DNA of 64,000 bases from Rubripirellula sp. (lineage in GTDB: Bacteria; Planctomycetota; Planctomycetia; Pirellulales; Pirellulaceae), in assembly GCA_965216875.1 (NCBI GenBank), contig OZ244207.1, positions 1,216,001 through 1,280,000 of the forward strand, written 5' to 3'. Each line of letters starts with the position of its first letter. The stretch's first letter is position 1. This document shows positions 10,142 to 30,258 of this stretch, piece by piece. The notes under the pieces are model-generated. The model saw nothing but the letters and a program-made list of their open reading frames with translations. It had not been told where the DNA came from and did not search any database. Both the position numbers and the translations under genes were made by a program.

Positions 10142-10156
10142 CTGCCACGGTGGCAC
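10142..10156. promoter_or_regulatory. island palindrome, imperfect copy (ctgccacggtggcac)
   Basis: near match to GTGCCACWGTGGCAC, upstream of ORF 10204. Confidence 0.6.
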
Positions 10157-10203
10157 ACTCTTGATCATGCTTGAAATGCCGCCAGAACCATCGAGATAGA
10201 GCC

Positions 10204-10383
10204 ATGAACAACCCCTACGAGATATCAACCAGCGATCACCGCCGACAACGAAACGCCTATACGGGCCGTCAGATGTTCGTGTCGTTCCTGGGTGGCACCA
10301 TCTTGGGACTGGTCATCGCGGTCCTGGGCTTCATCATCCTGATCTTGTGGTCCGCTCTTCAGACGTATCAGATCGGCGTCTAG
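10204..10383 (+). CDS. small membrane protein (59 aa)
   Basis: NPY N-terminus and one long hydrophobic stretch. Confidence 0.6.
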   Translation: MNNPYEISTSDHRRQRNAYTGRQMFVSFLGGTILGLVIAVLGFIILILWSALQTYQIGV

Positions 10384-11621
10384 TGATCGTGACCGTAGCC
10401 TGAGAGGTTGGTATCCATCCCGAGCGCCTTGCCGAGCCGGTTCATTCGACCGTATTCCTCGTCCATCCTGAAGATGTGGTCGTCGTCCACGTAGGCACGA
10501 AGCCAATTGACGCCTCTTCCCAACGGACCTGGACTGTTCTCCGCCCAGTACCCTGTGAGCTGTCCTCTAGTTGCGCCCTTCTCGCGCAATGCAGTGTAGA
10601 GCTCTTCGCCTTTGAGCCCTTCGTCGAGCAACTTGTTGATCAACGGTCCGAGTTCTTCCTCCACTGGTCGACCAAATTCGTCCCGCTCAATCAAGTCCGG
10701 CTCAAACGATCCCATGCCCAACGCCTTCGCCAACCGGCTCGTGTATGGACGAGCCATCTGAGGATTCGACTCGATCACCCCCGGGAGTAATGCCTCCATC
10801 AAACTCTGACGCCGTCCTTCAGGCGACAAACTCTGTTGCAACGCATCCAGTTTCGCTGAGGCGAGTTCACCTTCCCGCTCGGCGGTCGCTCGCTGGATTG
10901 CAAGCTCCTGCTGCCGGAGCCCAAGTGCACCCTCGTTCGCCGCGGCCTGTTGTTGAGCCCCAAACATCTGAACAGCGAGTTCTGGGCGATACGCCATCAA
11001 TGCCTGCATAAACCGGCTGGGCCGTTGGTTGGTCGATGCAATTCGCTGAGCCTGCTGCTGAGCACGGTGGGTGGGCCTGTTTGCAAGGCGACTCGCCCGA
11101 CGCGCTCGACCACGATCGCGATTTGCTTGAGCAGCTGGGGACAGCGGGCGTCGACCTCCCATGTTTAGAGCTGTTGCCAAACGGCCCGGTGGAGCTTGAA
11201 ACCCTGGCCGCATTGGAGTGGCGTCCACATAGCCTTGCAAAGGTGCTCCAACCACACTCACGCGACCATCGGCGCCAACTGTTCGCTCGTAGGTCTCGGT
11301 CTTCGCAGGTTGGACCGGACCTCGTCTATGGACGTACGCGAGATTGCTATTGGGAGTCCCTGGAGAGGTGTCGCCAGCAATGTTTGGGAGTGACGGCGAG
11401 GGCGTGTAGCTCCCGTTGCGGCCACGCGTGACGCCGTAGCCGGCGTCACGGTTTACGTTTTGCCCTATCCCGAGCAGGGAACCCAGACGCGACTGTGGTC
11501 TCGAGCTGCGACTGCCCATTCCCAGTGCGGCTCCCAGTCGTGACTGTTGTCTGCGCGGTGGTGCAGAGCTGCTCAGCAGTGATTGGCGACCTGTTGTAGT
11601 AGTCGTATCAAAGTATGGCAT
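10380..11621 (-). CDS. low-complexity hypothetical protein with repeated RLxxALGMG-like motif
   Basis: long ORF; the motif occurs about 5 times. Confidence 0.7.
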   Translation of the reverse strand: MPYFDTTTTTGRQSLLSSSAPPRRQQSRLGAALGMGSRSSRPQSRLGSLLGIGQNVNRDAGYGVTRGRNGSYTPSPSLPNIAGDTSPGTPNSNLAYVHRRGPVQPAKTETYERTVGADGRVSVVGAPLQGYVDATPMRPGFQAPPGRLATALNMGGRRPLSPAAQANRDRGRARRASRLANRPTHRAQQQAQRIASTNQRPSRFMQALMAYRPELAVQMFGAQQQAAANEGALGLRQQELAIQRATAEREGELASAKLDALQQSLSPEGRRQSLMEALLPGVIESNPQMARPYTSRLAKALGMGSFEPDLIERDEFGRPVEEELGPLINKLLDEGLKGEELYTALREKGATRGQLTGYWAENSPGPLGRGVNWLRAYVDDDHIFRMDEEYGRMNRLGKALGMDTNLSGYGHDH

Positions 11622-11886
11622 CGTCTTGTCCCTCTTGTTTTTTGGACGCCCATGTTTGGAACATTGAGTAGAGCTCTTCACCTCGATCGCTGGGCTGATC
11701 GGCATCACCAAGCTGCGATTCGAGTTCGGCGATCTCCTCGGGTGTGCTATTGATCATTTTGAAGCAGGTTGATTTCTCGAATGGAACACCCATCATCGAT
11801 TCGTTGCTCCACGACTCCAATGCCCTTGAGAGACGATGGAAGAACATCCGCGTCTGTTCATCACCATTGCGTACCATTTCGACCAC
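11608..11886 (-). CDS. hypothetical protein
   Basis: 92 aa ORF overlapping the start of the next gene. Confidence 0.5.
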   Translation of the reverse strand: MVEMVRNGDEQTRMFFHRLSRALESWSNESMMGVPFEKSTCFKMINSTPEEIAELESQLGDADQPSDRGEELYSMFQTWASKKQEGQDDAIL

Positions 11887-11991
11887 TCCATGTTTTGTGT
11901 TTCGACTGATCTCATTCTCAAGAGTTGTTGTCTGCGATCAAGCCTTCAGTTCCTATCTGTTGTTGATTTCTTGAAGTTGTCGTTTGGAAGT

Positions 11992-12006
11992 GTGCCACAG
12001 TAGCAG
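11992..12006. promoter_or_regulatory. island palindrome, imperfect copy (gtgccacagtagcag)
   Basis: 13/15 match, located between divergent genes. Confidence 0.6.
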
Positions 12007-12077
12007 AGTCTGTGGCGGGAGGTTGGCAAGCGCACCTTCGATTCGGTAACAGCGCACATCCACAGCGAGCATTGACC

Positions 12078-12692
12078 ATGAACGAGACCACCCACGAAAT
12101 TGAAACAGGGGATCGACCTGAGCCGGATCGAACGTATTCGGAACCTCATCGCACCTGCCGTTGGTGCAACACATCGAAGCCGATAACGGAGTACCGCATC
12201 CAGTCGCGCGAGCCTGACGGCAGGGCTTATCGTTCGCACCAGTGCCGCCAGTGCCACAATCGTGTCGAGCGAGAGCGTTCAAGACGCAAACGAAAGGATC
12301 AAAGAGACCGTCGCATCCACTCCAAGTTGGCCCTCGTCGCCCGCGCCAAGTCCCAGCGCCGTTGTGTTGCCGCCCTGGCCGAGTCACTCCTCGAAGGCTT
12401 CGGGGGCGTTGAAGGCTTTGCAAAGGCTTGGACCGAAGCCATCACAGAAGCCACCGCTTGTAAGCGGATCCGAGCTGGTGAGGCTCTCGTCGTTTTCCTT
12501 CAATGGCTCGAAGAGCATCCCGAGGTAACCATGGATATCAGGACAGCGTCGGATGAGGAGCTCGAACGAGCCTACAGGGACGCGCTTGCAGCCGCTTTTA
12601 TCGAGTTTCTGCGTGATCATCGGGGAATCGCGACCCGACTGCTCGCTCAGTCAGGATTCGTTGAGGCTGAACCGTCAAACGTCGTGGAATAG
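12078..12692 (+). CDS. CxxC...CxxC zinc-ribbon protein
   Basis: CRWC and CRQC pairs followed by a basic helix. Confidence 0.7.
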   Translation: MNETTHEIETGDRPEPDRTYSEPHRTCRWCNTSKPITEYRIQSREPDGRAYRSHQCRQCHNRVERERSRRKRKDQRDRRIHSKLALVARAKSQRRCVAALAESLLEGFGGVEGFAKAWTEAITEATACKRIRAGEALVVFLQWLEEHPEVTMDIRTASDEELERAYRDALAAAFIEFLRDHRGIATRLLAQSGFVEAEPSNVVE

Positions 12693-12839
12693 CGACACGT
12701 CAATGAGAGCTCTCCGGCAACCATTGGGAGCCGCTTGGCTCTATGTGAATCGGCACCACGTCCAGCCGTGAGAGTACCTCCCGTTTCCCTCTCAATTGTG
12801 GTGACGTCGCCAAGCTCCTGGGCTTGAGGCAACCGCACT

Positions 12840-12854
12840 GTGCCACAGTGGCAC
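12840..12854. promoter_or_regulatory. island palindrome GTGCCACAGTGGCAC
   Basis: perfect 7-1-7 inverted repeat. Confidence 0.75.
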
Positions 12855-12959
12855 TTTCGCTGCCCCCTCTGCTTGGAGGGTGTTGCCGGAGGGTCCAGCG
12901 ATAATCTAAGAGGAGCCAGGTGTGCTCCAAAGAGCTTATTCACAAACCGGAGTTTCACC

Positions 12960-13623: not shown

Positions 13624-14061
13624 ATGAGGCATGATCAGTTTGAAGAGTGGATCACGTCGCTCGTTTCGGAAGTTCGAAGGATTCACCGCCTTCTTGCCGA
13701 TAGTGTTTCGCCAGGAATTGAGGTAGCGAGAGCAGAACGCGCTGAGGATGACCTCTGCGGTCAGGCCCTGGCTCTCTTCAGGCTGCTTTCGAGGCACCGA
13801 CGCAAACTCTCGTTTGATGAGGTCGCCAAGCTCTCAGACGCCTTTCGCAACCCCTACCCAAAGCATGAAACGATCAGGCGCGCGCTCGAACGTCTTTCGG
13901 TCCAGCTTGCAGACCATGGATTCCACGTTCGTCTCTCCCGCGGGACCGCTATCCTCGTCGACCTGACCGACAAAATTCCCGACAAACTCACCGGTGTCCA
14001 TTCCGAGACATCCCAGGAACAATCAGACCACTCCATAGGAGACTCACGTCATGAGTGCTGA
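13624..14061 (+). CDS. hypothetical protein, possible winged-helix DNA-binding protein
   Basis: LSFDEVAK...ETIRRALERLSVQL pattern resembles a wHTH. Confidence 0.5.
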   Translation: MRHDQFEEWITSLVSEVRRIHRLLADSVSPGIEVARAERAEDDLCGQALALFRLLSRHRRKLSFDEVAKLSDAFRNPYPKHETIRRALERLSVQLADHGFHVRLSRGTAILVDLTDKIPDKLTGVHSETSQEQSDHSIGDSRHEC

Positions 14062-14227
14062 GGCAACGCTGCTCCCCGTAACTGAACTCGAGGTCCGACA
14101 AGAGATCGCGGCGAAACTCCGCGAGCTGAAGGCGCTACGGAAGATCGCCAGGGCTCTTGGGGAATTCGAGGAGGAGAGTCATCACGCTGCACGGTCTCGT
14201 GCACTGCTCAGTGAGGTAGCCGATTAG
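14051..14227 (+). CDS. small helical protein (58 aa, MSAEATLLPVTELEVRQEIAAKLRELKALRK...), not in the ORF track
   Basis: taggag RBS, ATG at 14051, TAG at 14225-14227 overlapping the palindrome. Confidence 0.6.
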   Translation: MSAEATLLPVTELEVRQEIAAKLRELKALRKIARALGEFEEESHHAARSRALLSEVAD

Positions 14228-14241
14228 TGCCACTGTGGCAC
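14227..14241. promoter_or_regulatory. island palindrome GTGCCACTGTGGCAC
   Basis: perfect copy directly upstream of the polymerase-like gene. Confidence 0.75.
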
Positions 14242-14257
14242 TTTAATAGATCCATCT

Positions 14258-15700
14258 GTGGTCGAGCAGGCCCACCGGAGATCCGACAATGCCCCAAAAA
14301 AAAGGGGGCTGCGCGAGATGGTTAGCGCAGCCCCCGAGCAGTTTGATCCGACAATGCTGATACCGGAGTTTCAAATGATTATGGGTTGTGACGCAAAAGA
14401 TTCAAGCCTTGCTCCCAACTCGAGCAGCCAACTTGAATCCGAACCGGCGAAGGCCTATCAAAGGCTCAAGGTCGAGCCTGAAGGAGCTCCAGTTGGACAT
14501 CATGTTGCAGTTCATCGCGACCTGCTTGATTGGATGGAAGACCACGTACAGAACGATGACGTGCGCCATGAGCTTACGCTCTGCTTTCAGACCTACATGA
14601 GAGAAGGACAATTCCTGATCAACCAAAAGCGGTTTGGCCACGGTTTTGGCGGTACGGCGACGAAGGCTCTTCGGACAGCTCTTGGCAAGTGCCCCTTCGT
14701 CGAACGCTTGTCCGAAGGGATCCCGGGAGTATGCTCGAGCGAATACCGATTCCGGCTTCGAGCGATTTCCCGCAATTTGCGGGGCAAAACGTGGTCACCA
14801 GATAACGGTATCCTCCTGTTCTCGGTTCCTCCCGGATATTGCCGGTTGGTGCGGGTGCCTTCTGACTGGATGGCCCATCGAGCGTCTAGATGGGTTCAGT
14901 TCTGTGCTAAGCGTGGTCTTCCTCTTCCGGCTGATTTGCGTGCCGACTCCCCGCTTGCATCGGCTACCTTCGATGCGATCCGGCGCATTTGTGTTCCCGC
15001 CGTCGTCGATGCTACGGGCGTCGTGTGTGCCGAAAAGATTTCTTTCCTTCTTGAATTTCATAAGTCATTGCTTACGAAGAGGGTTCGTCGCAAGTACTGC
15101 GCCAAGGACGGCAGGACCTATCACGCGATAACCAATTGTCCAAGGGTTCTCAGACGTCAGCTGCTCCTAAATGGCGAGCCGTTGCGTGAGGCTGACCTAA
15201 GCTGCTCGCACTTCTACCTATTGGCGACCCAGATAGCTGATGTCGATGAGCGAGACCGACTGCTAGAACTCATCCGTTCGGGGCGCTTTTACGAGACCGT
15301 CGCGGAACTCTCGGGTGAAGAGTTCGTAGATCGAGCGGAACTGAAGCAGGAAATGCAACGACAGTGTTTGTTTGGGCGAGACGGGCGAATCTCGTCGCGA
15401 CCTTTGTGGCCTGCTCTACGGAAGGTCTCGCGGCAGCTCTGTAGCCTAATCCTTCGCTTAAGGCGGGGCTTCGCCAAGAAGAACGCCTCTAACTTTGCCA
15501 AGCTAATTCAACGGCTAGAGGGCCGTTTAATGGATGATGCCCACTACAAACTGATTGAAGAAGGCATTGATGGTATTCGGCTCCACGACGGGTTTCTTGT
15601 CGCTGAAAGCAGTATCGATCGCGTTGCCCAAATCATTAGAGATGCTGGCGTGAAGGTCTTCGGCGCAGAGCCCAGAATTGGGATCAAGACCGGAGATTGA
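14258..15700 (+). CDS. family-A DNA polymerase / T7-RNAP-like palm-domain protein (candidate replicase; start uncertain, possibly 14354 or later)
   Basis: GRTYH..., motif A-like EADLSCSH, motif B-like RAELK..LFG, IQRLEG, motif C-like RLHDGFLV. Confidence 0.65.
   Translation: MVEQAHRRSDNAPKKRGLREMVSAAPEQFDPTMLIPEFQMIMGCDAKDSSLAPNSSSQLESEPAKAYQRLKVEPEGAPVGHHVAVHRDLLDWMEDHVQNDDVRHELTLCFQTYMREGQFLINQKRFGHGFGGTATKALRTALGKCPFVERLSEGIPGVCSSEYRFRLRAISRNLRGKTWSPDNGILLFSVPPGYCRLVRVPSDWMAHRASRWVQFCAKRGLPLPADLRADSPLASATFDAIRRICVPAVVDATGVVCAEKISFLLEFHKSLLTKRVRRKYCAKDGRTYHAITNCPRVLRRQLLLNGEPLREADLSCSHFYLLATQIADVDERDRLLELIRSGRFYETVAELSGEEFVDRAELKQEMQRQCLFGRDGRISSRPLWPALRKVSRQLCSLILRLRRGFAKKNASNFAKLIQRLEGRLMDDAHYKLIEEGIDGIRLHDGFLVAESSIDRVAQIIRDAGVKVFGAEPRIGIKTGD
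14296..14335 (-). terminator. minus-strand intrinsic terminator-like hairpin
   Basis: 11-bp perfect stem gggggctgcgc/gcgcagccccc preceded by A8 on the plus strand. Confidence 0.6.
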
Positions 15701-15703
15701 ACC

Positions 15704-15822
15704 GCAAATGCTCCGGAGGAATACCGCGTCTGCGTTCCCTTGCGCGTAGCCGCGGACGCCGACGAGCGGGGCAAGAAGCCACAGCGAGCATCATCACCGA
15801 CGTTCGCGACGAGATCCTCTGA
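15704..15822 (+). pseudogene. frameshifted fragment paralogous to gene 16317-16874
   Basis: ANAPEEYR..ADERGKK/PTASIITDVRDEIL* versus AKAPAEHR..ASERDTKPTAKIIAEARDEII. Confidence 0.7.
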
Positions 15823-15897
15823 ACGCCCAAGGTGGCCGCGGAGACGTCTCCGATAACCTATGTGCTGTGGCGATGAACACGCCAGGAAAATCAGGGT

Positions 15898-16320
15898 ATG
15901 CAAATTTGCATACCCAAACACCGAAGTTACACCGACCCACGATTCATTAATGACACTTTCAGACACGATTCCAGACAAGATGTTTCGACGAAACCTGGGA
16001 ACTCTGCATCTCCAGCAGCTTGCGCGGCTTGGTATTGGCTCGCACAGTTTGACGACAAGGGACTGGCCGACAAGTCGATCGGGATTCTCTCCGGGAGCCT
16101 AGAGGCGATGACCACATCCCCCTTCAACAAGTGCCGAGAGTCGCTGATGAACTCCCGAGCGAACAAAAGGAAGCTCACTAACGATGCCCAGCTCAAACTC
16201 CTTTGGTCGGCCTGGGAGAAAGCGAAGGCCGGTAAGACCGTGAAGGCACTTCGGCCTGTAAAGCAGATCGCATGTTGCGACGCAGCCTATTACGCCTTAA
16301 AGAGGATCCGAGATCGATGA
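15898..16320 (+). CDS. hypothetical protein (possibly 5'-truncated)
   Basis: 140 aa ORF; ATGA overlap with the next gene. Confidence 0.45.
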   Translation: MQICIPKHRSYTDPRFINDTFRHDSRQDVSTKPGNSASPAACAAWYWLAQFDDKGLADKSIGILSGSLEAMTTSPFNKCRESLMNSRANKRKLTNDAQLKLLWSAWEKAKAGKTVKALRPVKQIACCDAAYYALKRIRDR

Positions 16321-16874
16321 TCAACGTTGTCCACCCAGGCAAAGTAGCCCGCCTCAAGCAGCTCGAAGGCGTCGTCGAACGAGGCAAAAAGACGTTCGTG
16401 AAAGTCGGCAACGCCTTGAAAGAGATCCGCGACCAGGAGCTGTACAAGGTCACGCACAGGAGCTTCGCAGCGTACGTGGAAGATCGGTTCGGATTTAAGC
16501 GACACAACGCGTATCACCTGATTCAGGCTGCTGAGGCTAGCGATTCTGTTAAACACGTTCAACATATTGAGAATGCTCGCCAGGCGGCTGAAGTCGCGAA
16601 GGCTCCCGCCGAGCACCGCGATGCGGTTGTCGAGCGAGCAGCCGAGATCGCTAGCGAACGCGACACCAAGCCAACAGCCAAGATCATCGCCGAGGCACGC
16701 GACGAGATCATCGGCGCCAAGCAGGGCTCACCGATCGAAGCTGCACCGCGAACCGACCCGGTAGAGGCCCTGGCGGCGATCGTTCGAACGCTTGAAACCG
16801 ATCAACTCGTTGCCATGCGGAATCTGATTGATTCAGTCCTGGGCGAGGTGAACTCAAGCGGAGGGAAGTGCTGA
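16317..16874 (+). CDS. phage-type HTH protein (DUF3102-like N-terminus)
   Basis: LEGVVERGKKTFVKVGNALKEIRDQELYK..SFAAYVEDRFGFKRHNAYHLIQAA pattern, common in prophage proteins. Confidence 0.7.
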   Translation: MINVVHPGKVARLKQLEGVVERGKKTFVKVGNALKEIRDQELYKVTHRSFAAYVEDRFGFKRHNAYHLIQAAEASDSVKHVQHIENARQAAEVAKAPAEHRDAVVERAAEIASERDTKPTAKIIAEARDEIIGAKQGSPIEAAPRTDPVEALAAIVRTLETDQLVAMRNLIDSVLGEVNSSGGKC

Positions 16875-16915
16875 AGGTCGACAGTGGTCTTCTAGGCTTC
16901 CAGCCAAACTAGTTT

Positions 16916-16930
16916 GTGCCACTGTGGCAC
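16916..16930. promoter_or_regulatory. island palindrome GTGCCACTGTGGCAC
   Basis: perfect copy upstream of ORF 16965. Confidence 0.75.
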
Positions 16931-16964
16931 TTTAGCATCACCATCCACTAACCAAGGAACCACG

Positions 16965-17237
16965 ATGGACTCAACCGACAGCAGCCAGATCCGACTCGTT
17001 CGGGTCAAGGGCTACGCAAACCTTGTGATGCAGCAATACCTCGACGGGCAGTGGCGAAACATCCCTGTCGTTGAATTGTCGGGCAAAGAGATTGACGTTC
17101 CCAAGGACATCCCGCGCAAGCCACGCAAGAAGAAGGCTGCGGCGAAGCCAAAGCCGAAGAACAAACCAATGTCCAGACGCAGCCGCGTTCCAGCCGGCGG
17201 CAGCAATACGCCTCTTGGGCGGAGAAGGCTCGCGTAA
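16965..17237 (+). CDS. small protein with a Lys/Arg-rich tail
   Basis: aagga RBS; 90 aa. Confidence 0.6.
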   Translation: MDSTDSSQIRLVRVKGYANLVMQQYLDGQWRNIPVVELSGKEIDVPKDIPRKPRKKKAAAKPKPKNKPMSRRSRVPAGGSNTPLGRRRLA

Positions 17238-17387
17238 CGGGGCTGCACGCAATTTGATGGAATCGATCGGTTGAAGGGATAGTTCGTGCATTCGGTTACG
17301 GGCATACTCAAATAGTGGCTGGCACGGAAATACCTGATACAATCTTGGCGTGAAATCGTACTACCATTCGTCCTAGAGGAAGAATCG

Positions 17388-17669
17388 ATGCCGAGATTAA
17401 ACTTGAGGATCAAGCACAAGAAAATCAATTCAGAAGATCGAGGATTTCACATCAAGATTGTCGGCCCATTTAAGGCTGCCAAGGGCGTTCACTTCGAGTC
17501 AACCAATGGTACTTCTTCCATGAGGCTGCAACGATTTCGATTGGAAGAGGGCGTTCTTGAAATCAAGAGCAAGTTGCACTGCAATGTGAAGTATCTCGGT
17601 GTTTGGGTCCCCCCCTTCTCTAAGCACACGATTACGAAGGGAGGAAAAGACGTCGCAAGCTTTGAATAG
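17388..17669 (+). CDS. hypothetical protein (93 aa)
   Basis: gagga RBS followed by ATG. Confidence 0.6.
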   Translation: MPRLNLRIKHKKINSEDRGFHIKIVGPFKAAKGVHFESTNGTSSMRLQRFRLEEGVLEIKSKLHCNVKYLGVWVPPFSKHTITKGGKDVASFE

Positions 17670-17983
17670 AGCTAACCAGTATTGGAGTTAAAGGCGATTG
17701 GAGGGGCCTGTTTTTCCTGATTGAGATCGACCGGAATCAATGCTCCATGTTGGTTCCGCGGAAATTGCTCAAGAGATTCTGCCTGGACCTTCTGTAGCTC
17801 CCGTGCGGCTCTCTGAATTGGCTAGTATTGGACAGAAGTGCCAGCAGCTAGTACCGGAATGACTGAAGTGAATCTGGCCTGCTGCTCTTCATGTGCACTA
17901 ATACACGACTCTATTCATCGGACCATTGGTGGCCGAGAGAATGTGCAGCATGCTTTATGATTGTGAGAAAAGGGGAGTCCAAG

Positions 17984-18226
17984 ATGCAATCGAAGACCAC
18001 GGGCCCGAAAGGGCAGATGCAGCTCTACGAACACTGGAGTGAGAGCGCGAGCGGCCATGTCGAGACCACCGAGATTGCGGAGCTGACCGTCGTGGACGGC
18101 AACGTCGTGCTCATCGTATCTTCGCGCACCGAGAAGTTCATTCCGGGCTCGGTTGGCGCTGCGTGGAAGAAAGAGTTCACGATCGGCGGACGGCAGTTGG
18201 CGGAATTGATTCAGAACAACACGTAA
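17984..18226 (+). CDS. hypothetical protein (80 aa)
   Basis: ggggag RBS followed by ATG. Confidence 0.6.
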   Translation: MQSKTTGPKGQMQLYEHWSESASGHVETTEIAELTVVDGNVVLIVSSRTEKFIPGSVGAAWKKEFTIGGRQLAELIQNNT

Positions 18227-18237
18227 CGAGGGCAAGT

Positions 18238-18369
18238 ATGGGCACGTATCCCATCCAAATTCCAGTGAAGTCTTACGGTGGGAAAGACCCCAAACTCATC
18301 CGCGAATACCGCGTTTGCGGCCAGGCCGCGAACGATATTCAGGCATGCCTGAACGAACAGGCAAGGTAG
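18238..18369 (+). CDS. short or truncated hypothetical protein (43 aa)
   Basis: gagg RBS followed by ATG; may be a pseudogene. Confidence 0.35.
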   Translation: MGTYPIQIPVKSYGGKDPKLIREYRVCGQAANDIQACLNEQAR

Positions 18370-18460
18370 CCAGCGACATACCTTTACAAACCACCAGATC
18401 GCCTAGGCAACGTAACGGAATCACATTTTTCCGCGAAGAGCCTTTGATAGGAGCCAAAAT

Positions 18461-18712
18461 ATGAGCCGCAAATGGAAACAGGTCACCGGCAAGGTGCGCG
18501 TCCAAAACGAAGAAGGGAATGAACTGGAGTGGGATGTTGTCCACGAGTTTTCCGAGTGCAAGACCATGCACGGCACGAGCGTATCAAAAAGCAGGCTGAA
18601 GGATGTGCGGAGCCCGGATGGAAGGGCGATCTACTCCCGCGATGAGGGTGAGTTTTTTTTCGCGGATGAGCCGAACTCCATCTATCGTGTGGTGGAGGAG
18701 TGGGAACTCTAG
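18461..18712 (+). CDS. hypothetical protein (83 aa)
   Basis: aggag RBS followed by ATG. Confidence 0.65.
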   Translation: MSRKWKQVTGKVRVQNEEGNELEWDVVHEFSECKTMHGTSVSKSRLKDVRSPDGRAIYSRDEGEFFFADEPNSIYRVVEEWEL

Positions 18713-18847
18713 TCAACTAACGATTGCGGGGGAAAGCTAGGACATCACTCTACGCGTTGCATTATCACTGATTCATCCGGCGCCGCGGCGGACACATCGA
18801 CCCAATGCAGTACGCCGCTCCGTAGCGAAAGGGAGGTTTTGACGATC

Positions 18848-19468: not shown

Positions 19469-19483
19469 GTGCCACTGTGGCAC
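19469..19483. promoter_or_regulatory. island palindrome GTGCCACTGTGGCAC
   Basis: perfect copy between convergent modules. Confidence 0.75.
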
Positions 19484-19703: not shown

Positions 19704-20750
19704 TCAATCCTGTGCAGATTCCCTTCCTTTGGTGATGTCCCAGCCGAGATAATCCGAAAGCGAGTCCACTGTGGCATCAATCTCGTCGTTTGCAACACCA
19801 GCATGATGAGCCGCGGCCTCTATATGTTCACGTGCCACCGGCTGGGAGACGTCCCTTTGAGAGATCCAATAGAATTGGCGATCAAAATCGTCCAAAAAGA
19901 CGAAGCCTCCAAACGCCGAGTGGTTAGCGGCGGTAGCCACCCAAATACTGTTGGGGACATTGGGCAACGATGGTTCTTCTTGCAACTCTTTGCTGAACGC
20001 GCGCGTTAGCGATCCAGTTAACCCCGATTGGTAATTCCAACTTCCCATGAATCCCTTAAACCAATCTCGCCAGCCCTGAGATTTGCAGTGCTCGAAAGCT
20101 AGGCCTCTTGCATGTCGGAGGAAGCCCATGATCACCGCTCCACGAAGCTCATGACTTCGTTCAAAGGGGACGAAAAGGCGGTTCGCTGCTGGTTCCGGAG
20201 CTAGCGTGCCGTAGACATCGATCTTCGCAGAAAGGCCCAAGTCCGGGAGCCACTCTTGTCGCGTTGTACCCATGACTGCATCCCACGTATGAAGACCACC
20301 GGGTGCTTCGATACCAAACAACGAAAGCTGATACGACGACAGCATATTCGGCAGGTGGTCGCTCTGATCTAGGCAGCCTCGTTGACGCCAATGATCGAAG
20401 AGCTCCTGGAGACTGGCGTGCTGCAGTTTCGCGACTTCCTCTCGATCGTCGAACCAGAATCCTCTTGGGGCAGGCTGACTAGAAGCTACAGTCTCTATCG
20501 CCAAGTCAAGGTCGCCCTTTGCGAGGACTTCAAAATCGGAAGGTTGGACGTAATCGTCTTCATGTTGGTCTCTATTAAACGCGTCAAGAATCGTTTCTAG
20601 ACTGTCGCTAGAGTCTCGCACCTTTTCCAGCAAGACGACTAGTTCGTCTTTGTCTTTCGGAAAGGCTGGAGGCGAAACAACTCGAACGCCGTCGACGTTG
20701 CCTTCATGACATTGAGTGAATTTGCTGCTAACCAGGAGATTCCCATCCAC
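19704..20750 (-). CDS. hypothetical protein, possibly the detached C-terminal part of the HD/ATPase gene
   Basis: same strand, no clear RBS or start, 255 bp downstream of the HD/ATPase ORF. Confidence 0.5.
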   Translation of the reverse strand: MDGNLLVSSKFTQCHEGNVDGVRVVSPPAFPKDKDELVVLLEKVRDSSDSLETILDAFNRDQHEDDYVQPSDFEVLAKGDLDLAIETVASSQPAPRGFWFDDREEVAKLQHASLQELFDHWRQRGCLDQSDHLPNMLSSYQLSLFGIEAPGGLHTWDAVMGTTRQEWLPDLGLSAKIDVYGTLAPEPAANRLFVPFERSHELRGAVIMGFLRHARGLAFEHCKSQGWRDWFKGFMGSWNYQSGLTGSLTRAFSKELQEEPSLPNVPNSIWVATAANHSAFGGFVFLDDFDRQFYWISQRDVSQPVAREHIEAAAHHAGVANDEIDATVDSLSDYLGWDITKGRESAQD

Positions 20751-21005
20751 GTCACTGGACCTGACGTGATACCTCGCGAGCTATCACCAAGACGATGGGC
20801 GCATGAGCCACCATCGTTCGAATTTGAACCTTTTGTTGAGCGGAAGCCAGCATGGACGTACTGTCTAACGTCCTCTGTGTTCGACCTTTCCCGTTACCAC
20901 GAGAACCTTCGTGGGCAGGGGGCAATCTACTTCTTGTCCGGCGAAAACGGTAAGCCCGCAATAGCAACTGGAAACCTATACCTTCGGGGAGGACGCATCC
21001 AACAA

Positions 21006-22742
21006 TCACATTTCATCTACTCGTTGCGCAACATCATCCATCACAAGAAAGACGGTAACTTTGGTCCCAGAATAACTCGGTGGCGAATCGGACTCAGGAT
21101 CTTTAGGAGAGCAATATGCTGGAAACTCCACCAAGTCAGCTTCAGGGAGTTCCTCGATTACGAAGTATTTTGACGCGCCTTCAATCGTCATACGTAGCGG
21201 TCTGGAACCGTACTGAAATGTTTCGACAACAATTCGGTCGCCGCCGAGGAAGCAGGAAAGGAACCCAATCCCAAACTGCGAGCAGGCCTCTAGATGAATG
21301 CCCATCTCCTCCAAACGCTCGCACTCAGCCGAAAACTCAGGAGAGCGATAGAAACTCTTTCCGACTTGCATGAAGAAGTTCTCGACCTGATCAAGGGACA
21401 TTCCAATCCCGTTGTCGCGAAACTCGATTCGTGGGCCCTCGTCTGGATTGCTAGCCACATGGGGCAAGCCGCTGCCGTCCCAGACTTGGATCCGCGGTAC
21501 GTAATTGACCGGCTTCCCCTGATGGGAATGTGCCTCCGCCCGCGCTTGCTGGTAGCGGCAGGCGTCGAGCGAGTTTTGGAGCAGCTCCCGTAGGAACATC
21601 GTCTCGTCCGGGTAGAGACTCTTGTCCATCAAGAGCTTCATAATCCGTTCGTAGTCCAGCTGGAATCGGAACCCTCCTGCGACGAATCGAGGGTCGGCCA
21701 TATTCACTTGGTAGCGATCAACGATGGGCGCGAGCCTCAACTGGTACCGATCCGCCATTTCGTTTGGGAGCTCCCGAACGAGCCTAGTTGCGTCCTGCAA
21801 TTCGCGGTCGACCCAATCGAGATAGGCGTGGACCGCAACATAGTCTTCCGGAGTCTCGCAGTCAGCGATGAACTCGATCCTTTCGGTAGTAACATTGACG
21901 CCTTTGATGCTTAGGTGTTTGTTCCATTCGGCAATCGAGATCGACTCGGTGAAGTGAATTGAGTGAAAGGCCGAGCATGGAGTGCGAGTGCGATCGAAAT
22001 CTAGGATGTCACCTAGGCGTAGGCAGCAAGCAAGATATCGAAGATTGATGCGTGTATTGCCCAAGTGGTCCGCGTTGCGCATCCGCAATACGCATTGCTC
22101 TGGCTTTCGTGGATCTCGAGACTGGCGTACGCCCCAATTGTGGCTTTCGCAAAGGATGCCGATGTCCAGCGTCAATGTCGCTCCCCGAAAACGTAATCTC
22201 TCCGCAAGATGCGACTGGATGAATCTGTGTACTCGCTCTGCATGGCGTTGACGAATGAACTCAGCGAAGACCGCGTCGCGAACGCAATCTGCTTTGACCG
22301 TCTCGCCATTCCTTTCTGCCTGGTCGGCGTCATCAAGACGCCCGCGATTGTGCCGGCAATGCGACTTGTACTCGTCAGAGTCGAGGATCGCCTGTTTTTC
22401 ATCAGCCTCGGATACGAACATTCCCACATCGTGGAGCAAGATCGACAACCACTGAAAAGCTAGCTCAATCGCGTTGAGTTGGATCGACTCTGGCTCATGG
22501 CTCTGACGAGGCAGAAAGTCGTGGACATGACCAGCAACGTTGAGCAAGTGGTCGAGGTCGTGCTTTGTGTACTGTCTGAACGTATGTTGAATTCGGTCGA
22601 TGAAAGGCTCCACGACGTCCGAAACCTCGAGCACTAGGCCCTGAAGCTGCTTGACCTCCGCTCGAGTCACCTCTTCATAGTCGTGAAGGTTGTTGAACTG
22701 CTGAAAGAGCCTGTGACTCTCGATCGAATCTCGGAAACCCAT
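21006..22742 (-). CDS. HD-domain (HD-CE-like) + Hsp90/GHKL-type ATPase protein
   Basis: HDLDH and LLHDVGM; FLRELLQNSLDA, DNGIGM, QFGIGFLS, GTKVTV GHKL boxes. Confidence 0.85.
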   Translation of the reverse strand: MGFRDSIESHRLFQQFNNLHDYEEVTRAEVKQLQGLVLEVSDVVEPFIDRIQHTFRQYTKHDLDHLLNVAGHVHDFLPRQSHEPESIQLNAIELAFQWLSILLHDVGMFVSEADEKQAILDSDEYKSHCRHNRGRLDDADQAERNGETVKADCVRDAVFAEFIRQRHAERVHRFIQSHLAERLRFRGATLTLDIGILCESHNWGVRQSRDPRKPEQCVLRMRNADHLGNTRINLRYLACCLRLGDILDFDRTRTPCSAFHSIHFTESISIAEWNKHLSIKGVNVTTERIEFIADCETPEDYVAVHAYLDWVDRELQDATRLVRELPNEMADRYQLRLAPIVDRYQVNMADPRFVAGGFRFQLDYERIMKLLMDKSLYPDETMFLRELLQNSLDACRYQQARAEAHSHQGKPVNYVPRIQVWDGSGLPHVASNPDEGPRIEFRDNGIGMSLDQVENFFMQVGKSFYRSPEFSAECERLEEMGIHLEACSQFGIGFLSCFLGGDRIVVETFQYGSRPLRMTIEGASKYFVIEELPEADLVEFPAYCSPKDPESDSPPSYSGTKVTVFLVMDDVAQRVDEM

Positions 22743-22857: not shown

Positions 22858-22872
22858 GTGCCACAGTGGCAC
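22858..22872. promoter_or_regulatory. island palindrome GTGCCACAGTGGCAC
   Basis: perfect copy 115 bp upstream of the HD/ATPase gene. Confidence 0.75.
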
Positions 22873-23408
22873 TATTGGGCCGGAGGTAAATGAACGGTCG
22901 GTCGATGCAAACGACTTGAGTTCAGGGAGAGCCAAATTCCCGTCGGTGTCACCAACCAGGGAAATTCAGTGATTCGGCGTCGGCCATCGGAGCATCGAAT
23001 CGACAGTTGGTAAGTCGCTTAAAAACTGCCCTACATATGGCATTCAACCATTGATGCGTCGTTCCGGCTTCGCTGCCGGACGGGCTCCCCTCGGCTTGGG
23101 CCGAGGCTTCGCTACGCTCGGCCTCCACACCGGCTGCATCCATGTCCCGAAGGCACATTCGCGGCGACCATCCATGAGTCGCCGTGCCTTACGGAATTTC
23201 GTCACTCGATGCGTAGGGCGTCACCGCCCGCGCTCGCTCCGACGTGAGACATCGTCTTTTACTTAGTTGACATTCTGCGGGAATTTTGACGTGATCTCCG
23301 CTGCTCATTGGAACATCTACCGAAGTTCCGGCGGCGTGGCGACATCTTCTCCTTTGGCAACGGTTTCTACGCCCCCGCTATCCGGCACCTGCTGAGGCAG
23401 AATCAAAA

Positions 23409-24827
23409 ATGAAGCGCAAGTGTGGCGTTCGTTTACAAATTCCGATTCACGTAAAACGCTACTGCGGGGGAAGCCGAACACGAGAATCTCCAATACAATG
23501 CACTTTGCATACGACCAAACGTGAATTGAAAGCACATCTAGTGACCAGGGCTGACCGAGTATGGCCGAAACCTCGAAGCAGAAATGTGGGGTCCTTTGGC
23601 AATCTTGAACTCTACGCTGGAACTCTGTTTCTCGCGGAATCAGAGGGGACAATCACACAATCCACACTCACGTCTGATGAGAAAGGGCTAGGCCAGCGCC
23701 TACGCGGCTTACTTTTGGTTCAACGCGTGACGCCCACGACTGCGGGTGATTTGATTACTGAGCTTCAAGCTTACGAGTGGATTCAGCGTCAAGACACTTT
23801 TCCAAGAAGCTATTCATTGACACCCGATGGTGTCGCTGCAGCCCAAATTGCGAAGACTGATCGACACGGTTTCCGGCGGTTGTTGCTCATGAAAATGCAA
23901 CAACGCTTTGTAGTGCCAGGCTGGTTCGTCGATCGTTTGCACACGATAAACCCGCACGGTGGTGATGTTGTCCTTCCAGGACCACGCCCTGGTTGGCGGC
24001 CAGCAGTATGCCAACTTGCAGACGATAAATGGCGAGAAAGTCTTGAGAGTGAGGTTGCAATATCTCATGAACACAATACTGCGACGATTGATAACGCATT
24101 CCCGGTACCGCTTGACCGATGGATACGAGAGGTGAAGCGCGAGTGGGCTGATTTCAAAATTACCCGATCAAAAAGCACGACGTATGCGCCTCGTGGACGA
24201 CTTGCAAGAGCAATGAGAAGAGCCGCAATTCAGTTGCTCTTCAACAATAAACCGTTTGGATGCAGCTATCACACTTCAGATCAGTCAATGCATCCTGTTC
24301 CACCACGATCGTTCCAGTCGTGGTGCCCGCTACTGGATGCACTGGAACTGATCGGCTACACCGACGCACATCCGGATATCATGGGACGGCTTATTTTTCC
24401 ATGTGCCGCCTTTCGGCGTACCGTGAATGCAGAGGAATTTGAGCGAACGGAAATTAGATCACCGGACGCCAAAGTGTTGGTTATAAACCAACCCAAATGG
24501 TCCGAGAACATGGCTGGAGTCTTCAACAATACGCTTTGGAACGTTTATTCTCGTTTCGCAAAGAAAGTTCGGACGAGATACATTTCAGTTCAAGATGTGC
24601 GTGACGAAGTCTGCAGACAGCTGAGATTAAGCTCACTTCTGTTTGACACATTTCTTGAAAAAACCGTTCGCCATACAGCAACTCGCAAGGACGAGACCGG
24701 AGGTATTATGATTGCACTTGAAAGTGATTTACAACCAAAGCAACAAACTGGTAGCGGTCTCCTGCGGCGTCCGGTCTACATGGATGGAATTGCTCACTCC
24801 TTGATATCAGTATCTGTAACCCAATAA
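23409..24827 (+). CDS. hypothetical protein, probable winged-helix domains
   Basis: LITELQAYEWIQ..YSLTPDG wHTH-like segment; ISVQDVRDEVCRQLRLS helix. Confidence 0.7.
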   Translation: MKRKCGVRLQIPIHVKRYCGGSRTRESPIQCTLHTTKRELKAHLVTRADRVWPKPRSRNVGSFGNLELYAGTLFLAESEGTITQSTLTSDEKGLGQRLRGLLLVQRVTPTTAGDLITELQAYEWIQRQDTFPRSYSLTPDGVAAAQIAKTDRHGFRRLLLMKMQQRFVVPGWFVDRLHTINPHGGDVVLPGPRPGWRPAVCQLADDKWRESLESEVAISHEHNTATIDNAFPVPLDRWIREVKREWADFKITRSKSTTYAPRGRLARAMRRAAIQLLFNNKPFGCSYHTSDQSMHPVPPRSFQSWCPLLDALELIGYTDAHPDIMGRLIFPCAAFRRTVNAEEFERTEIRSPDAKVLVINQPKWSENMAGVFNNTLWNVYSRFAKKVRTRYISVQDVRDEVCRQLRLSSLLFDTFLEKTVRHTATRKDETGGIMIALESDLQPKQQTGSGLLRRPVYMDGIAHSLISVSVTQ

Positions 24828-24843
24828 CAACCAAGCGAAGACC

Positions 24844-26223
24844 ATGACAAATCCGTTGCTGCGACGTGGCAAGGAAATGCCGATTGACAAGTCTGCTCGC
24901 TACGCGAAGCTTGGACTTACCGATAACCCGTTTCCTGCAGAACCGACCGTCTCGCCAGATCATCCTGATCCACGTCGGAATGGGAGCATATATTGCGAGA
25001 CACTTCACGAAGATAAAATGCAGAGTTTTGAATCTCTGCTTATCGCACGATCCGAAGGTCCAACGGTTCGACCTCTCGTTTTTCTGATGGATCACACCAC
25101 GGCACGAGGCCGCGGAATTGGAAAAACTGCGTTTCTAAATAGACGACAGAATGAAATTTTGCGGGACTTTGGAAGCGCGGCTTCGCGAGGCGACGAAGTT
25201 GTGTTCGCCGTTCACATCATTCCTCCGGTGAATCCAGAATGCAGAAAGTTTTGGGAACTCACTCGCCTAATCTGCGATCGCTTGATTGATCGAAATGTCA
25301 TTCTTCAAGCAGTGTGCCGTCTTCGGGCCACATATCCCAAGATGCCAGAAACCGTTTTTGAGGAAGTTGGTGAAATAGATGAGTGGCCAGAGACTATTGG
25401 AAGCGATGACTGGCTGCGAGAACGTCGAGTTGACCGACATGAGCTAAATCGCCACGTTAGACAGCAACTCTACAAGGCGGGCGTGCGTGACATGGTTGCT
25501 GACAAAATAGCCGCCAACGGAAACAATCGTGCGGTACTACGGTCATGGTTGTTCTCGAGCATGAAAATCACGACCTGGCGCAAGGAGGGGCCGCAAATCG
25601 TATTTGACGACTTTGTTAAAGTATTCCGAGCTGCTGGCTTTACGCGAGGATTGCTGTTGATCGACGAAATGGAGAAGATCGTAAGGCCGCAGAACTCGAC
25701 GGAACGGCGCAATTTTGTGGAAAGCCTAAGGTACTTTCTAATTGATGGAGACTGTGAAGCAGCCCGAACTGGGTTTTACGGAACCGTACTGACGATTCAC
25801 CCAGGAATCCAAGAGCTCTTACTTCAGCATTGGCAGGTCACGGGCCTGGATCGGTCCGCTCCACTTCATGAGCCAGACGTAAAACAGAATGAGATTTCAT
25901 TTGGTCCATTGAGTCGTGAGCATGCAGATTTGTTAGTACAGGAATATTTAGGCCATTATGGAAAAGATACTGCATCGACGGGAGTATCGCCTTTCACGAA
26001 GGAGGCAATTGACGCTGCACTAGTTAAGTCTCGGCACGTGCCTGGGCCGATGCTGAACCTCTTGTTCAATGCAATAGAAAGAGCGGCAGAAAGAGGTGTC
26101 GAGAGTATTGACGGGCCTTTTATTGAACAGCTTTACGACGAACGAAATCAGCATGGAGAAGCCCTCGTTCAGCCCGATCAGCTTCCTGCTCCACAGACAC
26201 TCCTGATGGATGAAGAAGATTGA
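24844..26223 (+). CDS. P-loop (AAA+-like) ATPase
   Basis: N-terminal LGLTDNPF; Walker A GRGIGKT; Walker B LLLIDEME. Confidence 0.85.
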   Translation: MTNPLLRRGKEMPIDKSARYAKLGLTDNPFPAEPTVSPDHPDPRRNGSIYCETLHEDKMQSFESLLIARSEGPTVRPLVFLMDHTTARGRGIGKTAFLNRRQNEILRDFGSAASRGDEVVFAVHIIPPVNPECRKFWELTRLICDRLIDRNVILQAVCRLRATYPKMPETVFEEVGEIDEWPETIGSDDWLRERRVDRHELNRHVRQQLYKAGVRDMVADKIAANGNNRAVLRSWLFSSMKITTWRKEGPQIVFDDFVKVFRAAGFTRGLLLIDEMEKIVRPQNSTERRNFVESLRYFLIDGDCEAARTGFYGTVLTIHPGIQELLLQHWQVTGLDRSAPLHEPDVKQNEISFGPLSREHADLLVQEYLGHYGKDTASTGVSPFTKEAIDAALVKSRHVPGPMLNLLFNAIERAAERGVESIDGPFIEQLYDERNQHGEALVQPDQLPAPQTLLMDEED

Positions 26224-26657
26224 CTGACGAAGGATCGCCACTTGATTTTAGATTGCTGTCAGAGCGGGCCGTGACCGATTCTTTGATCGAATCGAAAGAC
26301 GCCGATTCGTATGGATCGCTGCGAGTTTGTCCTATTGGTCGCCTACTTTTTGTCGTCGAAGGAATAAGAAAAAGCGCAAACACTGCATCCGGGTTAAACG
26401 AAATACGAGAAGGGCGGACCGACTTTCACAGCATTCAAGCGTCTGGCGGCTTGTTGGTTGCTGGCGTGACCTCTCAGGATGTTTGCGATCAAATGTTTCA
26501 GCCCGAAGACGACTATGAATCCTGCAGTATATCCGAGAAAGTCTTTGGACGCGGTCTCTCTCCAGATGTAACGACCGATTTGCTCGCACTCGCATCGTTT
26601 GATCGAAAATTCGACGCGGAAACGACGCGTCAATACGAAGAGGCTAGTGATGCGTGA
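26220..26657 (+). CDS. hypothetical protein
   Basis: overlaps both neighbouring genes, consistent with translational coupling. Confidence 0.6.
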   Translation: MTDEGSPLDFRLLSERAVTDSLIESKDADSYGSLRVCPIGRLLFVVEGIRKSANTASGLNEIREGRTDFHSIQASGGLLVAGVTSQDVCDQMFQPEDDYESCSISEKVFGRGLSPDVTTDLLALASFDRKFDAETTRQYEEASDA

Positions 26658-27171
26658 CCTAGTTTTCGATGCGGATCATCTGCCTGAGCTTCTTGGCCAG
26701 TATTTTGATCCCACCGGCGTTAACAGAGGATATGGAGCATTCGCCCCCTCAGACGCGTTTTCAAGGCCGCTCGCTGTTGCACTAAATCAAATATTGGCGG
26801 ACTGGCGAACGTGTATTTCCACTGACACCCTACCTTCTTCGCTAGTCGTTATATCCACATTCGCTTTTATTGAGCTTGGCAGAAAGTGGGACCAGATGGT
26901 TGACGGGCGATTTAGTCCGAGCCAGTGTCGTGCTTTCACGGCTCAGCCGCCAACGTGGGTGAGTATCGCTCCGCTCGATGAGGATTTGCTACCTAGTTAT
27001 TGTGACGTACCTCAGGCCGTCACACTCGGCAACGGAGATACCGTTCCAATTGAATGGACAGACGCCGTCCACGTAGCAACAGTTCTTTCAAGGGAAGAGA
27101 GCACACTCTTGATCTCTGGCGATCAAAGGCTCTCGTGTATTCCAGATATTGCACATCGAGTAATGACATAG
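26650..27171 (+). CDS. PIN-like domain protein
   Basis: LVFDAD at the N-terminus, E in FAFIEL, EWTDAVHVATV and LISGDQRL at the C-terminus. Confidence 0.65.
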   Translation: MRDLVFDADHLPELLGQYFDPTGVNRGYGAFAPSDAFSRPLAVALNQILADWRTCISTDTLPSSLVVISTFAFIELGRKWDQMVDGRFSPSQCRAFTAQPPTWVSIAPLDEDLLPSYCDVPQAVTLGNGDTVPIEWTDAVHVATVLSREESTLLISGDQRLSCIPDIAHRVMT

Positions 27172-27295
27172 ACCTACATATAGACTCACGGCTCTTTTGC
27201 GAACGAGAAGGATGCCTCACAATTTCAGACGGGAATCCCAGCTGCGTTTCCCCCTGTCTACCATTCCGGTCCATTGTTTCAGTTGAGGTTTATTG

Positions 27296-27442
27296 CTACG
27301 AAGATCGACTTTGAACGATCGCCGCAATGATTTCTTTGGTCGCTTCGTCCAGAGTGGATCACGACTGCGAAACGATGCGTAAAGAGGCATCCAAGTCGTC
27401 CGCCGAGCGGGCAGCGCCACTTATCGCCGGGCAAAACTGCAT
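27296..27442 (-). pseudogene. interrupted small ORF (..LRIVSQS*STLDEATKEIIAAIV..)
   Basis: internal TGA at 27359-27361 where TGG would give a W-x-T-L motif. Confidence 0.35.
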
Positions 27443-27601
27443 GATTCCCAACGATTCAGAAGATTGTATCGTTTCCGTCGGGTGACGAACCTATCGCTGC
27501 GGTGACAAATGCTCCGGTGGCCGACACCGAAGCGAGTTCGCCAGAAGCCGATATGACTTCGGCTGGACAAACCGAAGCAGTCACTCATGCCGCTGAATCA
27601 C

Positions 27602-27616
27602 GTGCCACTGTGGCAC
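27602..27616. promoter_or_regulatory. island palindrome GTGCCACTGTGGCAC
   Basis: perfect copy just past the excisionase stop. Confidence 0.75.
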
Positions 27617-27635
27617 AGAATCGACCGAGCCAGCC

Positions 27636-27914
27636 TCATCGTGTCGCGGCCAGCGCGTCAATCACTTGATCCGGACGGAACCTCCTGCAGGTGCCGATTT
27701 TGATCGACGGGACCTCCTCATTGCGGACGAGCTGTTGGAGCTTCGACCCACTAATCCCAAGCCGTCTAGCCATCTCATCAGCGTCAACGAGGAAGTGCTC
27801 ATCTGGCTCCCGGGCGTCGGTCTGGTCGCGCCGTCGCTCGATCTCGTCGCAGACCATTGAGACGAACTGGTCGATCTCGACGCCCTGAAGGAAGATCTGC
27901 TGTCCTGTTGCCAT
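27636..27914 (-). CDS. excisionase-like helix-turn-helix protein
   Basis: LVDADEMARRLGISGSKLQQLVRNEEVPSIKIGTCRRF, an HTH_17-type pattern. Confidence 0.85.
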   Translation of the reverse strand: MATGQQIFLQGVEIDQFVSMVCDEIERRRDQTDAREPDEHFLVDADEMARRLGISGSKLQQLVRNEEVPSIKIGTCRRFRPDQVIDALAATR

Positions 27915-28059
27915 CACTAGCTCCTTGGTACACGGTGGCTCGTACTTGCACCGACCGATCAAGCGATGATCTCACAGTGTCGTTGCAGGTAGTTTATCGG
28001 TGAAGCCTCCGTACCGGCCGGGAAATCAGATTGGATGGTGGGGCTTGGCCGAGGCAACC

Positions 28060-28074
28060 GTGCCACAGTGGCAC
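28060..28074. promoter_or_regulatory. island palindrome GTGCCACAGTGGCAC (extends to 19 bp, 28058-28076)
   Basis: perfect copy upstream of the excisionase. Confidence 0.75.
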
Positions 28075-28407
28075 GGATTGAAGTTGCGGGGACCTCCTCT
28101 CAACTACCCGAGCCGTTTTTGGTGTTGCGCTCTCGATGGGGAATGTAAATCAAGAAGCGATCGCGAATTGGGTCCCCACCCCCATGTCGCCACAAGTTTT
28201 TCCTCATGCACTGAGATGCTGCCCGCGTAGCATTCCCGCGACCAGATGGTCAGCGACTTATAGGATCTGCTACGCAACACTTTGCGCTGAGCCCGATCGA
28301 GCTAAGGATTTTGGTTGTCGTCCTCTTGGACAGCTGCAGCCGCAACCTCCAGAGAGTAGCAGCTCTGTGGCAACCTCGGGTGATGCGAGTCATGGAGAGA
28401 GCCCAGG

Positions 28408-28915: not shown

Positions 28916-30258
<1,343 letters not shown>

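Follow-up and report, generated by a model that had tools for sequence, protein, structure and literature searches.

The DNA considered here (the window) is a stretch of 64,000 nucleotides from a Rubripirellula sp. of the family Pirellulaceae (contig OZ244207.1, positions 1,216,001 to 1,280,000 of the forward strand). It contains a 20,329 bp element integrated at a tRNA-Arg gene and bounded by 21-bp repeats, the right one of which is the 3' end of tRNA-Arg(ACG), and along the element are scattered nine copies of a 15-bp palindrome, GTGCCAC(A/T)GTGGCAC, whose probable role as operators is our main subject. The features of the element are as follows (window coordinates; ORF, open reading frame; aa, amino acids).

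9876..9896, + strand: left attachment (att) repeat of 21 bp, which copies the 3' end of tRNA-Arg
10142..10156: near-perfect palindrome with centre G and a single mismatch in the arms; a 59-aa membrane-type ORF starts 47 bp further on
10380..11711, - strand: protein of low complexity, rich in Gln and Ala; three related islands have similar genes, with a weak link in sequence
11992..12006: near-perfect palindrome with two mismatches in the arms; the zinc (Zn)-finger gene starts 71 bp further on
12078..12692, + strand: CxxC..CxxC Zn-finger and helical protein; candidate reader of the palindrome
12840..12854: perfect palindrome, 105 bp before ORF 12960
13624..14061, + strand: 145-aa ORF, winged-helix-like by eye only, no family match; candidate reader
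14227..14241: perfect palindrome; the polymerase-fold gene starts 76 bp further on
14318..15700, + strand: 460-aa family-A (PolA/T7) polymerase-fold protein, TV-Pol-like, catalytic residues conserved
16317..16874, + strand: 185-aa phage-type protein with a DUF3102-like lead; candidate reader that lacks a ParB N-terminal domain
16916..16930: perfect palindrome, 34 bp before a row of small ORFs
19469..19483: perfect palindrome between convergent gene ends
19704..22742, - strand: HD-CE/HATPase cargo gene, in pieces; 20657-21044 inverted relative to X5 (see below)
22858..22872: perfect palindrome, located 115 bp upstream of the HD-CE/HATPase gene
22973..27531, + strand: swappable four-gene cargo block
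27602..27616: perfect palindrome just beyond the end of the excisionase gene
27636..27914, - strand: excisionase, HTH_17, TIGR01764
28060..28074: perfect palindrome, located 145 bp upstream of the excisionase gene
28061..28201, - strand: conserved non-coding block
28916..30211, + strand: tyrosine integrase, spanning the right att repeat
30183..30258, - strand: tRNA-Arg(ACG), the integration site; right att repeat at 30184-30204

No capsid or terminase family was matched among the island ORFs scanned, and comparison of 25 ORFs with PHROGs yielded no virion family, except for a weak match of the excisionase to a small-terminase helix-turn-helix (HTH). The element therefore has the gene set of a phage satellite, namely an integrase, an excisionase and a replication-type gene without virion genes. 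PADLOC gave no real match for the cargo genes.

Copies and confinement of the palindrome

A motif scan of the window recovers perfect copies at 12840, 14227, 16916, 19469, 22858, 27602 and 28060 and copies with two mismatches at 10142 and 11992, exactly the positions that a first-pass annotation of this DNA had given. When up to three mismatches are allowed there are 10 matches in the window where 1.42 are expected, a number that none of 100 shuffles reaches; the tenth match (31127, 3 mismatches) is outside the element, and all nine sites are enclosed by the att repeats at 9876-9896 and 30184-30204. The host genome, one contig of 8,264,643 bp, contains 7 perfect copies with the centre base left free and all 7 are within the element, so that, for perfect copies, the earlier claim of an element-specific motif within the att repeats holds for the 8.26-Mb genome as a whole. 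Copies with one arm mismatch number 2 genome-wide (10142 and one elsewhere), and those with two arm mismatches 34. A relaxed form, TG(A/C)CA-N3-TG(T/G)CA, occurs 27 times in the host genome, 8 of them in the element and 19 outside, to be compared with 25-67 occurrences for other spacers; it is absent 5' of the host lexA and recA genes (430 and 700 bases scanned 5' of the domain matches). Two candidate identities are rejected on these grounds. A generic repetitive extragenic palindrome or a host core regulon is ruled out by the confinement of the motif to the element and the lack of any genome-wide excess of the relaxed site, and a host LexA box by the absence of a site 5' of lexA or recA.

With gene starts as we chose them, a start codon lies 13-145 bp past eight of the nine sites (the 13-bp distance belongs to a doubtful 55-aa ORF); the first-pass annotation had put most copies 15-150 bp upstream of a gene. 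The flanks also read as described previously, with gaggcaaccg directly 5' of 12840 and 28060 and ttt directly 3' of 12840, 14227 and 16916, and there is no flank homology beyond the 15-mer: when 153 pairs of flanks were compared, the one similarity to reach the top of the null distribution was a separate 23-bp inverted repeat. The two-fold symmetry, free centre base and unrelated flanks fit a dimer that reads duplex DNA.

Module exchange in the relative X5

The first-pass annotation offered three explanations for the palindromes, one of which was that they are crossover points at which cargo cassettes are exchanged, and a close relative, X5, allows this to be examined directly. The same element is present on contigs of X5, for the most part 95-99% identical, with four modules replaced: 14356-15832 (which includes the polymerase gene), 15978-16497, 17229-18796 and 22993-27511. 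In addition, 40 bases are skipped at 12702-12743, and the segment 20657-21044 of the HD-CE/HATPase gene is inverted. None of the 12 X5 breakpoints is inside a palindrome, the nearest being 91, 97, 115 and 121 bp away, and three further loose ends (10004, 13782 and 27744) are likewise outside the sites. All nine site positions are within aligned X5 pieces, and at 10142, the one site covered by the 40 differences listed of 374, the letters are identical. The positions stay aligned even though X5 has other sequence in place of the polymerase gene and of codons 1-60 of 16317. Cluster mates of the integrase, the excisionase, 13624 and 12078 lie on contigs that match those of X5 in length (at least 90% for the Zn-finger protein 12078), and there are none for the polymerase, 15898 or 16317.

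The 23-bp inverted repeat at 22973-22995 and 27509-27531 coincides with the X5 cargo-block breakpoints 22993 and 27511, and to judge from the sequence it is a better candidate for cassette exchange than are the palindromes. The sites do adjoin variable modules, and the window and its distant relatives have their genes in different orders, as would be expected of crossover points; however, in X5 they are not where the exchanges occurred, their flanks are unrelated, and two arms of seven bases with one base between them are shorter than is usual for the sites of tyrosine recombinases. We therefore regard a role in cassette exchange as largely refuted. As for the earlier description of the palindromes as module boundaries, it stands insofar as they adjoin swapped modules and fails insofar as they are not the swap points; as the alignment reads, the sites sit in retained backbone beside swapped cargo, and mark modules without being the places at which these are swapped.

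Some further sequence similarities of the element are recorded here. The segment 19209-19327, inside the element, is 91% identical over 119 bp to 7729-7847, just outside it. Non-coding DNA at 23033-23377 is 77% identical to G000:C1:644172-644541 and 75% identical to G137:C1:91237-91583; the G000 stretch lies next to a defence-type operon and the remnant of an integrase. On the same G000 contig, beside a second integrase-bearing island, tRNA genes form large arrays (some 48 within 42 kb, 591000-632638).

Related islands and phages that carry the site

Genes of the polymerase family are present in 56 of 400 Pirellulaceae genomes, and among 63 loci read a dispersed cluster of sites was found in four, with two sites at each of two other loci and one site at each of four; absence at the remaining loci is weak evidence because many are short contigs. 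Counted as TG(A/C)CA-N3-TG(T/G)CA, there are 5 sites in G396:C16 (of the type CTGACAC(C/G)GTGTCAG), 8 in G382:C71, 4 in G077:C2, and 2 strict and 2 relaxed sites in G284:C8. The window, G396 and G382 served to define the motif, and the islands in G284:C8 and G077:C2 were found later through a search with the Zn-finger protein. The three-base spacer is distinctive, occurring 27 times near the 63 loci compared with 2-10 times for each of eight other spacers. These related islands have other integrases, DUF1580-type excisionases and three types of polymerase, and yet the sites recur at corresponding junctions. In the window, G396 and G077 a site precedes the Zn-finger gene (none was seen there in G284), in G396 and G284 one precedes a parB-polymerase pair, and in the window, G284 and G396 one stands beside a conserved 120-bp non-coding block.

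The block, at 28061-28201 of the window, is 70% identical to its counterpart in G284:C8, with the palindrome in the same place, and 64% identical to that in G396:C16. It contains a G-run, CGCGATYG and TTTACATT, and is kept in the two relatives despite unrelated integrases. It could be a packaging, transfer or promoter signal, the first of these being suggested only by analogy with cos regions. The block core has 28 matches in viral contigs and 9 in the 400 family genomes, and apart from G284 and G396 these lack both the flanking G-run and a palindrome cluster, so we treat them as chance matches.

The exact motif occurs in 5 of the 400 family genomes without a dispersed cluster, and across genome contigs in at least 119 stretches, nearly all as a single copy, with two exact copies only in L074 among the matches listed. 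Searches with the polymerase and the integrase in viral contigs, with the Zn-finger alignment in metagenome contigs, and with an extended motif pattern in metagenome or viral contigs revealed no close relative, and comparison of the island DNA with 30 relatives matched only two short stretches.

Several further features of related islands and polymerase loci are recorded. In G077:C2 (602725-604183) the polymerase-fold gene is in two parts, divided after motif A, and where they join there is a palindrome that the second start codon overlaps; a second dyad, GGACA-N3-TGTCC, is present at both ends of the island (594317, 607582 and 607613), where it possibly represents integrase arm sites. G284:C8, at the same tRNA-Arg site, has a 712-aa Cys-rich gene (15480-17618) between the Gln/Ala-rich gene and parB; it has no family match and is reminiscent of tail genes of planctomycete phages. 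Two polymerase-fold genes of different subfamilies surround parB in G373:C88 (45174-50720), which has no palindromes, and other repeated dyads are found at the polymerase loci of G128:C1, G370:C1 and G335:C1.

The exact 15-mer is also present in 55 stretches of IMG/VR, and one contig stands apart. IMGVR_UViG_3300007643_000034 (38,094 bp, G+C (GC) content 0.56) has 17 sites, 15 of them identical to those of the island, mostly at gene junctions before both early and late genes, with a few inside genes. It is a tailed phage: PHROGs identifies genes for a terminase, a portal and the head, a tail-tube gene is present too, and helicase, ParB-like, LexA-type and sigma-like proteins are encoded as well. 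A -10-like hexamer (scored with a weight table) precedes 7 of the 17 sites, compared with 9% of random positions. Of 45 genomes from the host family, 4 encode relatives of the tail-tube protein, and one at 59% identity is named from a Pirellulaceae genome; because these relatives lie in that family, the host of the phage is probably a member of the Pirellulaceae. There is no cluster at 10 tail-tube-relative loci, at 2 terminase-relative loci or in 4 genomes with related prophages (covered as 3-4 kb loci), which counts against the sites being a general trait of the phage family.

The G396 variant (TGACA) is matched in 87 stretches of viral contigs, of which 79 loci were read; at least three dispersed sites are present in 16 loci of 10 contigs, versus none of 28 control loci with an unrelated pattern, and the phages concerned range from 36 to 61% GC. 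In two related phage contigs (L425:646-2439 and L471:3519-5318) this variant is written into the first codons of a portal-like gene. The 15-mer also forms tight iteron-like clusters in the HTH_36 gene of a Pirellulaceae prophage, after the primase gene in G077:C11, and in several viral contigs.

The identity of the island sites with those of a phage raises the question of whether the element is a capsid-less satellite whose sites copy the operator of a helper phage, the helper's regulator acting in trans. In favour of this are the 15 identical sites in a tailed phage that has tail-tube relatives in the host's family and the GC content of the host, the persistence of the motif in islands with unrelated integrases, excisionases and polymerase subfamilies, the dispersed phage counterparts of the G396 variant, and the lack of capsid and terminase matches in the island; moreover, no island protein matches the phage, tblastn giving no match to the 38 kb and phmmer insignificant scores only. 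On the other hand, the exact site is dispersed in that one phage contig only and its tail-tube, terminase and prophage relatives are without it, two Pfam families and the phage's own protein revealed no terminase in G000, the conserved block matches no phage locus examined beyond the palindrome, and the occurrence of the motif shape in phages of 36-61% GC makes convergence possible. We consider a helper's operator a somewhat unlikely explanation. Small tRNA-integrated satellites such as the phage-inducible chromosomal islands (PICIs) and P4, and mobilisable islands that a helper's activator switches on, as at AcaCD or SetCD sites, provide a comparison. The island resembles these in having an integrase, an excisionase, a replication-type gene and defence-type cargo without capsid matches, but no helper or packaging gene was identified for it and its polymerase is of another class. 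In its most developed form, which is tentative, this proposal would have a planctomycete satellite family with a PolA-fold replicase carry its helper's operator before excision, replication and cargo genes, TG(A/C)CA-N3-TG(T/G)CA then being a widespread phage regulatory word read by an undescribed protein family.

The third of the original explanations was that the PolA-fold protein uses the sites as hairpin promoters or for priming, by analogy with phage N4. The perfect copies can indeed fold, with a stem of at least 6 pairs and a 3-base loop (about -6 kcal/mol), and the protein has a family-A polymerase fold. Its structural model is good (predicted local distance difference test, pLDDT, 90), and fold comparison pairs it with the DNA polymerases of Taq and T7 and with RNA polymerases of the T7 type, the best structural score being to mitochondrial RNA polymerase (Z 15.1, root-mean-square deviation 3.2, 249 aligned); across 118 sequences R266 and D293 are invariant and K343, H423 and D424 are kept at 90% or more, so that it has the conserved Arg, two Asp and fingers Lys of the minimal family-A core of the TV-Pol family. 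In both orientations, though, the loop is CAG or CTG, unlike that of N4, whose polymerase requires a -11 purine, -10G and a sheared G:A loop pair on the template strand (PMC4496689). At most 4 of the 63 other loci of the polymerase family carry a cluster, even allowing for the many short contigs, and the 38 kb of phage with identical sites gave no match to the polymerase. The polymerase-fold protein is rejected as an unlikely reader on the count of loci, and hairpin promoters or priming sites appear very improbable. By fold and core residues, the protein resembles the TV-Pol family, which comprises minimal family-A polymerases without an exonuclease, found in elements that carry a lambda-type integrase, planctomycetes being among the reported sources (Iyer et al. 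2008, PMC2579912). The island is similar in having such a polymerase in an integrase-bearing element; it differs in that we see no D5 helicase, and the part of PMC2579912 available to us does not mention a dispersed palindrome.

The putative regulator and its significance

The explanation that we favour, with a probability of about 0.5, is that the palindromes are operators for one dimeric, element-encoded regulator, whose binding is predicted here from sequence. It draws on the confinement, symmetry and position of the sites, their retention through module swaps, the common shape across islands and the identity with a phage site; identical sites along a phage genome, together with their position before genes, make docking of a regulator likelier than a cut-and-swap process. 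Of the earlier suggestion of an operator regulon for an element-encoded HTH protein, the regulon is the best supported part, with matching junctions in islands and identical phage sites, and the HTH reader is putative.

Several observations weigh against it. The site at 19469 has no chosen start within 600 bp and is between convergent gene ends; some sites in relatives and phages are inside coding sequence; -10-like hexamers precede only 1 of the 9 island sites, no excess over the 11% of random positions; and the same motif appears at apparent replication origins in the iteron-like clusters described above. No protein is common to all carriers of the site. The reader is probably element-encoded, and from sequence the first candidate is the Zn-finger protein 12078, followed by a ParB-like or 16317-type protein. 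The Zn-finger protein is present in four of the five palindrome islands, with homologues at 30-35% identity in three of them and weak look-alikes in two palindrome-bearing phage contigs. The look-alikes give a phmmer E value of 8e-5 (about 70 proteins) and an hhalign probability of just 0.7%, no Zn-finger homologue was found in the 38 kb of phage or in G382 (83% complete, searched without a positive control), and 11 of 13 stretches surrounding other homologues have no palindrome cluster; these results too count against the operator interpretation. The structural model of 12078 is poor (pLDDT 65, predicted TM score 0.35), and the fold search returned only HNH-associated finger matches.

ParB-like genes are present in G396, G284, G077, G382 and the phage, not in the window, where no ParB_N domain was matched among the ORFs scanned; in G396 and G284 a site immediately precedes this gene, and in the phage one falls on its start. 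The sites might serve maintenance of the excised circle and not transcription, either as parS-like loading sites for a ParB clamp or as dispersed iterons for a winged-helix replication initiator, which the iteron-like clusters of the 15-mer and the location of a G077:C2 site where the polymerase gene is split would also suit. It is harder to accommodate the lack of a ParB N-terminal domain match in the window, the absence of sites from G373:C88 in spite of its parB and two polymerase genes, the continued alignment of sites in X5 where the polymerase and the start of 16317 are replaced, and a dispersal at gene starts that is unlike the arrangement of the observed iteron clusters. A maintenance function consequently seems to us unlikely.

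If the palindromes are operators for an element-encoded regulator, one dimer would bind the double-stranded sites and switch several units together, namely the excisionase, the Zn-finger gene, the polymerase operon and the heads of the cargo. The neighbouring promoters would probably be repressed while the element is integrated, keeping the excision and replication genes quiet, and induction would release this repression. Arrangements of this kind are familiar from phages, since the stoperators of mycobacteriophage L5, the phiC31 conserved inverted repeats and the P1 C1 operators are each present in many copies at gene junctions genome-wide, as are the sites of the 38-kb phage; the L5 and P1 sites are asymmetric, whereas the island site is symmetric and is found also on an element without capsid genes.

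A close parallel is SPBRE of the Bacillus prophage SPbeta, a 15-bp motif at several intergenic and promoter regions that was found computationally long before its reader, the master repressor MrpR (PMC10516654). Like the palindrome, SPBRE is repeated at such regions of one integrated element; unlike the island, in which no virion gene was matched, SPbeta is a full prophage with a known repressor and another sequence and host (PMC10516654). The island also shows no MrpR-like second recombinase-fold gene, and its site is shared with an unrelated phage. A second parallel is KorB of plasmid RK2, a ParB-family protein that represses at a distance from OB, a palindrome with an unpaired centre base (the oligonucleotide contains TTTAGCGGCTAAA; PMC11790492). 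The common points are a palindrome with one unpaired centre base and the ParB-like genes of four related islands and the phage; the half-site differs, the window has no ParB N-terminal domain match and no conjugation genes were seen. By analogy, the sites likely work as SPBRE/MrpR or KorB/OB do, with membership claimed in neither.

In a limited literature search, in which short DNA words are noisy in full text, we found no published description of the motif or of the element family; the novelty lies in finding such a site on a family of elements without capsid genes, and in its being identical to that of a phage. The phages and mobile elements of the Planctomycetota have been little studied, and here there is a defined operator candidate on a small element in a closed genome, natural site variants in four islands and a phage with an identical site, a combination that should make the reader findable by DNA pull-down. 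If the reader is the phage's, the element would be a satellite that senses its helper through mimicry of a DNA operator. If it is the element's own, it would represent a new regulator family, and the sites could also bind a phage regulator, or the element's regulator act on the phage.

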